From Clostridia bacterium (GTDB lineage Bacteria > Bacillota > Clostridia > TANB77 > CAG-508): a DNA stretch of 64,000 nt. Both the position numbers and the translations under genes were made by a program. Under the pieces are notes generated by a model that did not search any database, was not told where the DNA came from, and saw only the letters and a program-made list of their open reading frames with translations. This document shows positions 58,111-59,367 of the stretch, piece by piece (the stretch's first letter is position 1; the number at the start of each line of letters is the position of its first letter). The stretch spans positions 75,964 through 139,963 of the forward strand of contig JAFUGK010000015.1 in NCBI GenBank assembly GCA_017469445.1. The letters are read 5' to 3'.

Positions 58111-58210
58111 AATTTAGCCTACTTACGTAAGCTAAATTATTCCATATTTTGGTGCAGTTGCCCAAAATATGGTTAGCAGGTGCTGTTTCTTCCAGAAACT
58201 AGCACCTAGC
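58111..58210 (-). other. Cluster of three hairpins between VR2/IMH and TR
   Basis: aatttagc-ctacttacgtaa-gctaaatt. ccatattttgg-tgcagttgc-ccaaaatatgg. gcaggtgct(gtttc-ttcca-gaaac)tagcacctagc. Confidence 0.55.
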
Positions 58211-58230
58211 ATAAGCTCACTTTCGTTTGC

Positions 58231-59367
58231 TTATTGGATTAAAGACTTAGATACTGTTATAACTGGGCGGACCCCACTGTAGTCGCCGTAGTTGTAGCGG
58301 TCGCTGCCCAAGAGGCCGCGGTCGCCATACACATTCCACACGTTGTTGTCGGACTCATAAGCAGAAGAAAGCCAATAATATAAGTAATTGCCACCATCAT
58401 TAGTATTAGCTGTTCCATTTATCATTGCTCCATAACTACTTTGTAATTCATTTGCTTCTTCATATGTTAATAATCTTCCTTCTGCTCCAGAACCTATTGT
58501 GCTTGTTGCATAATCTCTTGCTCTCATTATTGCATTATTTGCTTTTGTTTGTGTAGGGTCAGCTGCTGCTGCCACAGCATCTGTTGTATATGTGTTTAAA
58601 TTCATTCTTGTTCCTTCTACCCAATCACTGCTCCAATAGTTTGTACTTGAAAATGCACATTTTGTTTCGCTATATGCTGCATTTGGTTTTTGATAATATT
58701 TTCCTGTTGTTGCATCGTTTGGATCTGGATCTTTATCTAAATTGTATTTTGCAAGCAATGTTACATTTCCTGCCTGATTTGTATTGTCATCTATTAATAC
58801 ATAAAAACTTTCTGCTACTGTTTCTGTTCCTTTTGTTACATTTATTGTTACTTCTTGTCCTAATCTATATGTTCCTCCCCATATTGCATATAAGGTTCCA
58901 CTTTCACTTACTTCATCTCCTGGTGCATACATTGTTCCACTTCCATCAGCTTCTGTATTCCATCCTTTAAATCCATTTCCTAATGGAGCAACAAATCCAT
59001 AATTTATATTTCCTGTTCCTCCATTTGCATTATACGTTATTTCTGCTCCTGATGTTGCTACTACTGCAGTTGGCTGTAGTGGTACTACTGGTGTATCATC
59101 ATCGTCGTCATCATCTCCAGTTTCATTATTATTTGCACTCTCTCCCATGTATTTTGCAAATAAGTTTTCTACTTGATTTAATACCTCTTGGTCTGCATTT
59201 GCTGATGAATTATATTCCTCTACTGCATAATTTGCATTGTCTATTATGCTACTATTTCCTGTTAATGTTGCTAGTGCTACTCCTGCTAATATTAATAATA
59301 CTATTATCGTTATTACTAATGCTATTAATGTGATACCTTTTTGATTTGTTTTTCTTGCGTGTTTCAT
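58231..59367 (-). CDS. DGR variable target protein 2: pilin-like TM (KGITLIALVITIIVLLILAGVA), Flg_new repeat, C-type-lectin/DUF1566-like domain ending in VR2
   Basis: Intact 378-aa ORF. Flg_new motif ITYNANGGTGNINYGF...FKGWNTEADGSGTMYAPGD...LYAIW. CLec-like EGRLLTYEEANELQ...YYWLSS...GVRPVITV. Confidence 0.8.
   Translation of the reverse strand: MKHARKTNQKGITLIALVITIIVLLILAGVALATLTGNSSIIDNANYAVEEYNSSANADQEVLNQVENLFAKYMGESANNNETGDDDDDDDTPVVPLQPTAVVATSGAEITYNANGGTGNINYGFVAPLGNGFKGWNTEADGSGTMYAPGDEVSESGTLYAIWGGTYRLGQEVTINVTKGTETVAESFYVLIDDNTNQAGNVTLLAKYNLDKDPDPNDATTGKYYQKPNAAYSETKCAFSSTNYWSSDWVEGTRMNLNTYTTDAVAAAADPTQTKANNAIMRARDYATSTIGSGAEGRLLTYEEANELQSSYGAMINGTANTNDGGNYLYYWLSSAYESDNNVWNVYGDRGLLGSDRYNYGDYSGVRPVITVSKSLIQ
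58263..58373 (-). repeat. DGR variable repeat VR2
   Basis: Differs from TR at 21 positions, all at TR adenines on the coding strand, plus one 3-nt indel. Invariant 3' end is GGGGTCCGCCCAG. Confidence 0.85.

Follow-up and report, generated by a model that had tools for sequence, protein, structure and literature searches.

The 64,000-nucleotide (nt) stretch of a gut Clostridia genome analysed here (contig JAFUGK010000015.1, positions 75,964 to 139,963; "the window" denotes this whole stretch) carries a diversity-generating retroelement (DGR) with one template repeat (TR) and two variable repeats (VR1 and VR2). Between VR2 and TR, on the gene strand, lie three hairpins, A, B and C, which are real and are conserved with compensating changes in related gut-bacterial DGRs. 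They follow a flank common to both VRs, composed of a 14-mer resembling an initiation of mutagenic homing (IMH) site, a linker and a weak hairpin, P0; judged by analogy, this flank is the best candidate for a target signal like that of the BPP-1 DGR. We tentatively prefer, with somewhat less than even confidence, a reading in which the flank serves as such a signal and hairpins A to C are transcribed and, folding on themselves, link the target mRNA to the core of the DGR RNA.

The initial annotation had recognised the locus as a DGR, and its content agrees: genes for a reverse transcriptase (RT), a bAvd-like protein and a MutS_I-domain protein accompany one TR and two VRs, as in DGRs of the type with a MutS-like accessory gene. 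In a self-BLAST comparison, 23 of the 24 differences between TR and VR2 fall at TR adenines. For VR1, the automatic alignment assigns 24 of 31 differences to TR adenines, and when the repeats are aligned by codon in a manual reading nearly all differences fall at adenines, with two non-A changes plus two extra codons. Relative to TR, VR2 is one AAC codon shorter and VR1 two codons longer.

Three conserved hairpins between VR2 and TR

Every gene of the region lies on the minus strand of the window, and all gene-strand elements are read on that strand. VR2 and TR are separated by a spacer of 243 nt, and the features that concern the array are the following:

59367-58231, minus strand: target gene 2, an open reading frame with its stop codon at 58231-58233
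58263..58373, minus strand: VR2, found by self-BLAST at the 3' end of target gene 2 and ending with the IMH-like 14-mer TGGGGTCCGCCCAG
58263-58276, minus strand: the IMH-like 14-mer TGGGGTCCGCCCAG, GC-rich and identical in TR, VR1 and VR2
58208..58262, minus strand: flank common to both VRs (54150-54204 after VR1), with the last 10 target codons, the stop codon and P0
58211..58234, minus strand: hairpin P0, an AUAAGC/GCUUAU stem, a 2x2 internal loop, 2 further base pairs (bp) and a GAAA loop (58221-58224)
58176..58210, minus strand: hairpin A, GCUAGGUGCU.GUUUCU-GGA-AGAAAC.AGCACCUGC, a stem of 15 bp that contains two bulges and ends in a GGA loop
58142..58172, minus strand: hairpin B, CCAUAUUUUGGGC-AACU-GCACCAAAAUAUGG, 13 bp
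58108..58141, minus strand: hairpin C, a stem of 15 bp, including one G.U pair, capped by a GUAA loop
57907..58019, minus strand: TR, adenine-rich (AAC runs) on this strand
54150..54327, minus strand: VR1 and the flank after it, with their copies of the IMH-like 14-mer and of P0 (54153-54176) and no hairpins A to C beyond

The initial annotation had placed three hairpins and a shared flank within 58111-58262. The location is right, on the gene strand, while the lower bound falls short, as hairpin C extends 3 nt beyond it, to 58108; the annotation also lacked hairpin D (58063-58091) and motif E (58051-58062), which lie between C and TR. Folded as RNA, the minus strand of 58100-58265 reaches -61.4 kcal/mol (z = -8.1), a value equalled by none of 200 shuffles. 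The same strand folded as DNA gives -37.4 kcal/mol (z = -8.0), and the opposite strand gives -55.0 kcal/mol (z = -6.8). Taken singly, the hairpins are predicted to reach -19.0 kcal/mol as RNA and -12.4 as DNA (A), -16.9 and -10.7 (B), and -17.4 (z = -8.7) and -10.2 (C); the G.U pair of hairpin C becomes a C.A mismatch on the plus strand.

Relatives of the RT number more than 1000 in the protein collection, and a scan of the genome collection returned 379 related stretches. We compared 182 loci of the RT lineage, drawn from genomes, metagenomes and exact-protein look-ups, together with 80 distant viral loci as controls; individual loci are cited below by their L numbers. In about 11 distinct close relatives, whose RTs are 66-77% identical to that of the window, the entire spacer can be aligned in one order: IMH-like 14-mer, conserved last codons, P0, A, B, a variable hairpin C, D, E and TR. 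The initial annotation had made its proposal depend on conservation of the stems in orthologous loci, and the stems are indeed kept, with compensatory changes. A covariance model of hairpins A and B (R1) matches 13 distinct sequences, all of them upstream of a TR, and after a VR wherever the contig extends far enough, with no other match in 1.25 Mb. In the model alignment 96.7% of cells are paired, against 85.4% in shuffles (0 of 500 as high) and at most 49% when the partners are slid, figures that lean toward the model because the alignment was fitted to it; the same pairs were recovered in an independent MAFFT/RNAalifold run. Compensatory changes occur at 12 of the 28 pairs (5 of 15 in A, 7 of 13 in B), for example from GGUGCU/AGCACC to GGAGCC/GGCUCC. 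A recognisable hairpin A is also found in four loci with RTs 52-57% identical (L002, L003, L005 and L008).

The three hairpins are conserved in different ways. The apical part of B is almost invariant and its basal stem covaries. Hairpin C is always there, although its sequences are unrelated between relatives, and it carries a GNRA loop (GUAA or GCAA) in 7 of the 11 close relatives. The mean identity of the columns of A and B is 80%, whereas those of neighbouring C and the linkers cannot be aligned, and the conserved positions include unpaired ones, namely the CUGGAAG apex, the GGGC-AACU-GCACC apex and the bulges. This pattern is what would be expected if A and B were a specific binding platform, bound by the RT-Avd complex, the MutS-like protein or a host factor and tethering the DGR ribonucleoprotein or cDNA to the RNA or DNA of the adjacent VR and so favouring the VR in cis, or, in a variant, regulating how much read-through reaches TR. 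Also consistent with such a platform, the module follows the RT clade even though the N-terminal parts of the targets vary in length and domains, and the loop of the BPP-1 target hairpin is likewise sequence-specific (PMC3240598). The partner of A and B is, however, only hypothetical, and the module occurs with the MutS-like gene (L083, L102) and without it (L095, L100). There is, moreover, no downstream terminator for a regulator to control, and the module has no long-range partner that was seen to covary with it: the proposed pairing between its A loop (CUGGAAG) and the CUUUCCA right after TR shows no covariation, and loci of the L002 type alter the post-TR stem and not the A loop. We consider a binding platform improbable. 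An attenuator-like switch, in which the 5' arm of A would pair with GCACC in B, was also considered and is unsupported by L100.

Hairpins A and B occur only between a VR and a TR. As the initial annotation had reported, the array is missing from the VR1 copy: the A and B model matches the window once only, and after VR1, P0 runs directly into the metK promoter and riboswitch. In the window, L010 and L014, where one TR serves an adjacent and a remote VR, inspection of the folds places the hairpin cluster at the adjacent VR only. Sequence after remote VRs in general is less structured (-31.6 vs -41.4 kcal/mol per 150 nt, p = 8e-5). A third target paralogue, 57% identical to target 1, lies on the same contig, 200 kb from the DGR (L263, 264-275 kb; gene 5001-6131). 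It has a decayed IMH, TGGAATTCGCCCAG, a VR-equivalent without a match to TR and an ordinary intrinsic terminator in place of A and B, and, by its sequence, it is probably a former or never-targeted copy. The homologues in L264-L268 have no TR nearby and neither P0 nor A to C; they are only putative DGR targets and carry low weight. Among the fetched loci, three IMH copies are seen at the window locus only. As for natural variation, all contigs with this RT are identical in sequence, and both target proteins are singletons in 90% clusters.

A self-BLAST screen for adenine-specific repeat pairs yielded 77 VR-then-TR pairs 100-450 nt apart, with 59 distinct spacers, whose z-scores were computed from mononucleotide shuffles. 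From VR to E, these spacers have a mean z of -5.0 and a median of 3 hairpins of at least 7 bp. The minimum free energy is lower on the sense than on the antisense strand in 53 of the 59 (p = 7e-10), and single mismatches within Watson-Crick helices are G.U in 18 cases and A.C in 3, where composition predicts about 1.2:1. This strand bias points to selection of the structures as a single-stranded sense molecule, either RNA or sense-strand DNA.

It could be argued that A to C are simply the 3' end of an ordinary gene and have no connection to the DGR, serving target gene 2 as terminators or as generic stabilisers of its mRNA. Stable stem-loops do come right after a stop codon here, as in intrinsic terminators and 3'-untranslated-region stabilisers; a true terminator is present in the spacer of some distant relatives, such as L054 and L136; and remote targets finish with terminators. 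However, no T-run follows A, B or C, a terminator scan reported no intrinsic terminator in 58021-58262, and a hairpin with a T-run occurs in only 6 of the 59 spacers on the sense strand, against 12 on the antisense. Unlike such gene ends, moreover, the array has three hairpins in series, with conserved loops, at VR-TR junctions only; the sequence conservation of A and B tracks the DGR, and paralogues outside a DGR context use a single canonical terminator. We regard an ordinary gene end as very improbable.

The shared flank and possible enhancement of homing at the DNA level

The flank and the 14-mer are identical at 69 of 69 nt after VR1 and VR2, and the homology ends 3 nt past P0. Near the flank, the gene sequences of the two targets are 82-96% identical; the identity of the flank is weaker evidence of selection than it may appear, because the 150 nt of gene sequence further upstream are also 94-96% identical.

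The stem-loop of BPP-1-type targets is found 4-34 bp from the VR, has a GC-rich stem of 7-10 bp and, read on the sense strand, carries a loop of 4 nt with the sequence GRNA (Guo et al. 2011, PMC3240598). The initial annotation had likened the sequence after the VRs to an IMH followed by a hairpin signal, a resemblance that we find at both VRs. A GC-rich 14-mer closes VR and TR here, and the sequence beyond it differs between VR and TR; P0 begins 28 nt past the 14-mer, within the BPP-1 range, has a GAAA loop of the GRNA type, and overlies the stop codon of target gene 2 (58231-58233), as the BPP-1 hairpin does that of mtd. Unlike the BPP-1 stem, that of P0 is weak and interrupted, with 6 AT-rich pairs plus 2 around the 2x2 internal loop and 3 G-C pairs in all (-7.4 kcal/mol as RNA, z = -3.9; -4.1 as DNA). 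Relatives have GC-rich versions at the same site, with GAA, GAAG, GAAA or GATA loops, and some of them, such as L093 (GUGCC-GAA-GGCAC), possess the GC-rich stem that P0 lacks. Under strict criteria, a P0-type hairpin is present in 11 of the 59 spacers, against 1.1 expected.

The three stronger hairpins, which the initial annotation had compared with the BPP-1 homing hairpin, are a poor match for it. They start 53 nt (A), 91 nt (B) and 122 nt (C) after the 14-mer and span 53-155 nt from the VR, well outside 4-34 bp; their loops, GGA, AACU and GUAA, are not GRNA on the sense strand; and they follow VR2 alone of the two VRs served by TR. P0 is the element that fits best, if imperfectly. The difference in number that the initial annotation had noted is borne out, since 38 VRs of distant viral DGRs scored by the same procedure average 1.1 hairpins, typically with a 10-bp stem and a GAAA or GATA loop 15-43 nt past the VR, the very element reported for BPP-1 and other phage DGRs (PMC3240598). 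The method thus recovers the canonical hairpin, and arrays are a peculiarity of this lineage. These viral loci came from an alignment-based scan that found distant RTs only, at most 32% identical, and they served as controls; a scan of viral contigs with the single RT sequence gave no match.

The main alternative, and the one closest to the initial annotation, is that A to C, with P0, would be DNA-level homing enhancers. They would extrude on the sense DNA strand, to which the cDNA anneals, when it is single-stranded as lagging-strand template or behind RNA polymerase, and would act as a multiple "wedge" that keeps VR2 open, an amplified form of the single BPP-1 stem-loop. Efficient homing in BPP-1 requires inverted repeats after the VR, of which the stem structure and not the sequence counts (PMC3240598), and a published model treats the stem-loop as a wedge that prolongs the single-stranded state on the lagging-strand template (bioRxiv 10.1101/2025.08.18.670894). 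In the window, DNA folding parameters likewise give stable hairpins (z = -8.0). The target genes seem to be transcribed in the direction of replication, the GC skew of the plus strand being negative throughout and nearly all genes lying on the minus strand, and therefore the sense strand would be the lagging-strand template. An excess of G.T over A.C fits a sense-strand DNA hairpin equally well, A and B keep a constant distance from the VR by coordinate arithmetic, and in relatives with RT-TR order the remote VRs are followed by 2-3 or more hairpins.

The TR-adjacent VR of this clade is, furthermore, a diversified target, which also agrees with homing enhancers at this site: L106 and L164 are 99.3% identical over 3.2 kb, and their differences are confined to the VR, with none in the spacer, TR or post-TR region, so the clade diversifies the TR-adjacent VR in nature. 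The two VRs differ by one codon, and VR-length changes are whole codons within AAC runs, which suggests slippage in cDNA synthesis or integration.

Against enhancement at the DNA level, VR1 has a perfect 14-mer, the linker and P0 but no A to C, and its differences from TR are almost all at adenines; no paralogue away from TR carries A and B; and the distance and loops of A to C fall outside the BPP-1 pattern (PMC3240598). One hairpin suffices for phage DGRs, and the extrusion of AT-rich stems of 13-15 bp from duplex DNA is only hypothetical. We judge this alternative possible but rather doubtful.

The RNA core and the transcribed-linker reading

On the TR side, the following elements flank TR within the spacer and within the 200-nt post-TR spacer:

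58063..58091, minus strand: hairpin D, with a conserved GUAUUAA/UUAAUAU base and a variable inner stem, directly 5' of E
58051..58062, minus strand: motif E (AGGGGAAUACUU), which forms the 5' side of a long-range duplex closing TR into a loop
57851..57905, minus strand: stem-loop directly 3' of TR, UUUCCAUA...UAUGGAAA around an inner hairpin, with covarying stem pairs
57837..57848, minus strand: the 3' strand of the E duplex (AAGUAUUUUCCU), in the post-TR spacer about 60 nt past TR
57715..57739, minus strand: terminator-like hairpin with a T-run, with which the post-TR spacer ends about 20 nt upstream of the MutS_I-like gene

The inner stems of D differ and compensate between relatives (AGUUC/GAACU vs UACUU/AAGUA), and a model of D and E (R2) always matches directly 5' of a TR, in more distant loci as well. 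The duplex between E and AAGUAUUUUCCU is part of the minimum-energy structure of 57700-58064, recurs in all the relatives examined, and takes the place of a local hairpin first predicted for E, which was not significant (z = 0.2). Across 46 loci with 35 distinct E cores, cognate strands pair at a mean of -13.4 kcal/mol and non-cognate strands at -8.5 (p = 7e-9). When 41 loci are aligned simply with MAFFT, compensatory changes are seen at 8 of the 12 pairs, and the covariation score of the E duplex with the post-TR stem is 0.364, against 0.207 in shuffles (0 of 500 as high) and at most 0.161 when slid. Because E stands directly upstream of TR even where TR follows the RT gene, E, and probably D too, belongs to the TR side; and because E covaries with a partner beyond TR, the RNA must start at or upstream of E, which is 45 nt from C. 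Just 3' of E, the conserved GAGUCCCAG (58035-58046) pairs in the minimum-energy fold with GGGGUC at the 3' end of TR (57907-57920) and may represent a resting-state pairing beside the E duplex.

This arrangement resembles the BPP-1 DGR RNA, in which a "cPRT Stop" duplex between a pre-TR segment and the spacer is described together with a stem-loop that binds Avd and with a short stem-loop and adenosines (Handa et al., bioRxiv 10.1101/2023.10.23.563531); duplexes of upstream and downstream segments are reported there for 207 of 278 DGRs with Avd homologues. Here, the 12-nt E, about 30 nt upstream of TR, pairs about 60 nt after TR, a short hairpin (57823-57836) and then AAAUAU come next, and a stem-loop directly 3' of TR occupies the position of the Avd-binding stem-loop. 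The upstream-downstream complementarity with covariation that defines the duplex is thus provided by E and 57837-57848, with no involvement of A to C. In BPP-1 the end of avd supplies the upstream strand, whereas here that strand comes from the end of a structured spacer that follows a target gene. The BPP-1 architecture explains E and perhaps D; A to C, 45-150 nt further upstream, are left unexplained by it.

Candidate promoters that would separate the TR RNA from target gene 2 were rejected. The sole weak sigma-70-like match in the spacer (58164-58136) is absent from the relatives compared by eye. A -10 box of the TR RNA was ruled out for the conserved TTTAATAT that immediately precedes AGGGG, because the Gs after it covary with a partner and so must be transcribed; the distance between GGTATTAATA and TTTAATAT varies from 9 to 14 nt among relatives, as suits a hairpin and not a -35/-10 pair.

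According to the reading that we prefer, two functions would adjoin on the sense strand. The first would be the target signal, in which the IMH-like 14-mer is followed by 28 nt of linker and by P0, the weak hairpin with a GAAA loop that covers the stop codon, and the second the hairpins A to C. These would be transcribed as a linker joining the target gene 2 mRNA to a DGR RNA core made of hairpin D, the TR-closing E duplex, TR and the post-TR stem-loops. They are most likely transcribed, as no terminator or conserved promoter separates target gene 2 from TR, and they suit a junction element in that A and B are confined to VR-TR junctions and have no terminator features. Folding locally as an insulator or stabiliser, they would keep the near-identical VR RNA of the same transcript from disturbing the base pairing on which priming and termination of the cDNA depend or, alternatively, might protect the RNA ends remaining after processing.

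Several observations weigh against this transcribed linker. Co-transcription and the RNA ends are predictions from missing signals, and the strand asymmetry cannot separate RNA from sense-strand DNA, since G.T is the least harmful mismatch there too. Hairpins after the VR are a known feature of homing at the DNA level (PMC3240598), and remote VRs of more distant relatives are also followed by 1-3 hairpins. By coordinate arithmetic, A and B lie 44-54 nt from the VR end, which is nearly fixed, but 36-112 nt from D and E; with a near-constant distance on one side and a variable one on the other, they look attached to the VR side. The invariant A and B loops suggest specific recognition, which a plain insulator would not need. 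In vitro, BPP-1 cDNA synthesis needs only 20 nt upstream of TR (bioRxiv 10.1101/2023.10.23.563531), and VR1, judged from its sequence, is a putative still-active target. The transcribed linker and DNA-level homing are not mutually exclusive.

About as improbable as the binding platform, in our estimate, is that A and B would constitute an undescribed module of about 70 nt, particular to one DGR lineage, that the DGR machinery recognises and that couples the DGR RNA or cDNA to the neighbouring VR. This would explain why the module stands at the TR-adjacent VR only, and in that case the TR-adjacent target would be the preferred site of diversification, giving a graded hierarchy of targets.

The gene set at this locus, with target, TR, small MutS_I protein, Avd and RT on one strand, is that of the "architecture D" DGRs with a MutS-like (MSL) gene (Wu et al. 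2018, PMC5758913), although, unlike that class, some close relatives with the same spacer have no MSL gene. Term searches of the text of that paper and of bioRxiv 10.1101/2024.11.15.621889, which deals with Msl in Bacteroides DGRs, found no mention of hairpins, stem-loops or RNA secondary structure, and literature text searches found no description of the A and B module, which has no Rfam family. At the gathering score, no Rfam covariance model matches the spacer, and at E <= 1 the interval 52000-61000 contains only the S-adenosylmethionine (SAM) riboswitch and two chance-level matches outside the spacer. The array is a variation within a well-known kind of system and not a new kind. It is not yet settled how DGR cDNA finds and replaces the VR, and a recent preprint calls the part played by the stem-loop behind the VR enigmatic (bioRxiv 10.1101/2025.08.18.670894). 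The present lineage, common in metagenome-assembled genomes (MAGs) of gut Bacilli and Clostridia, offers a natural dissection of this problem, as one TR serves a VR with a minimal signal (the 14-mer and a weak GAAA hairpin) and a second VR with an added conserved three-hairpin array that is contiguous with the DGR RNA core. The covarying A and B module and the E duplex are, in addition, alignable RNA motifs for annotating this class of DGR.

Neighbouring genes and other elements of the window

The host contig is a 477-kb MAG contig with 26-29% G+C, in a gut Clostridia genome of about 28% GC. From 5' to 3' on the minus strand, the region comprises target gene 2 with VR2 at its 3' end, the spacer, TR, the post-TR spacer, the MutS_I-domain gene, the bAvd-like gene, the RT, target gene 1 with VR1 at its 3' end, and then a promoter, a SAM riboswitch and metK. 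A putative promoter of the locus itself lies at 59403-59431, ahead of target gene 2. The remaining genes of the DGR are the following:

57271-57684, minus strand: MutS_I-like accessory gene (Pfam MutS_I, 1.2e-9, 38.8 bits, above its cut-off)
56934-57278, minus strand: bAvd-like gene (Pfam bAvd, 1.7e-8, 35.3 bits, under the 40-bit Pfam cut-off)
55796-56950, minus strand: reverse transcriptase (Pfam RVT_1, 5.3e-13)
54173-55207, minus strand: target gene 1, which carries VR1 (54205-54327)

The MutS_I-like gene, between TR and avd, encodes a small MutS domain I protein of 137 amino acids in the public gene call. It is absent from some close relatives that share the spacer (L095-L101), and in L091 it lies on the opposite strand after the RT. 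A role of this protein as a decoy is conceivable, because in Bacteroides the mutagenesis by DGRs is reduced by host MutS (bioRxiv 10.1101/2024.11.15.621889). A Mob_Pre relaxase gene (59836-61221, minus strand) immediately precedes the DGR cassette, and the DGR may therefore sit on or beside a mobilisable element.

Downstream of target gene 1, the SAM riboswitch ahead of metK (53972-54076, minus strand, 74.3 bits) starts about 75 nt past the VR1 flank, and the metK promoter is a perfect TTGACA-17-TATAAT at 54114-54086. A 6S RNA gene was found at 19804-19992 (minus strand, 86.3 bits). A conserved leader of about 115 nt precedes three unrelated genes, all on the minus strand: DGR target 1 (leader at 55208-55390), an ABC exporter (gene 42690-44897, leader at 44898-45023) and a small open reading frame that begins at 13063 ahead of a PNP_UDP_1 gene (leader at 13064-13187). 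Just before the ribosome-binding site, it forms a long-range stem, GGGGACAYUUCUU/AAGAAGUGUCCCC, that encloses an inner hairpin; an Rfam search gave no match, and the leader could be an undescribed cis-regulatory element. Finally, a repeated hairpin element that reads, on the gene strand, GGGGACGUUUC...hairpin...GGGACA has three copies in the window (10803-10861, 15850-15908 and 46438-46496) and recurs in other genomes, in L264 (5975-6030) and L267 (about 7095-7115), just after target-like genes and ahead of terminators; from its sequence, it may be a repeat akin to repetitive extragenic palindromic (REP) elements or a protein-binding repeat.

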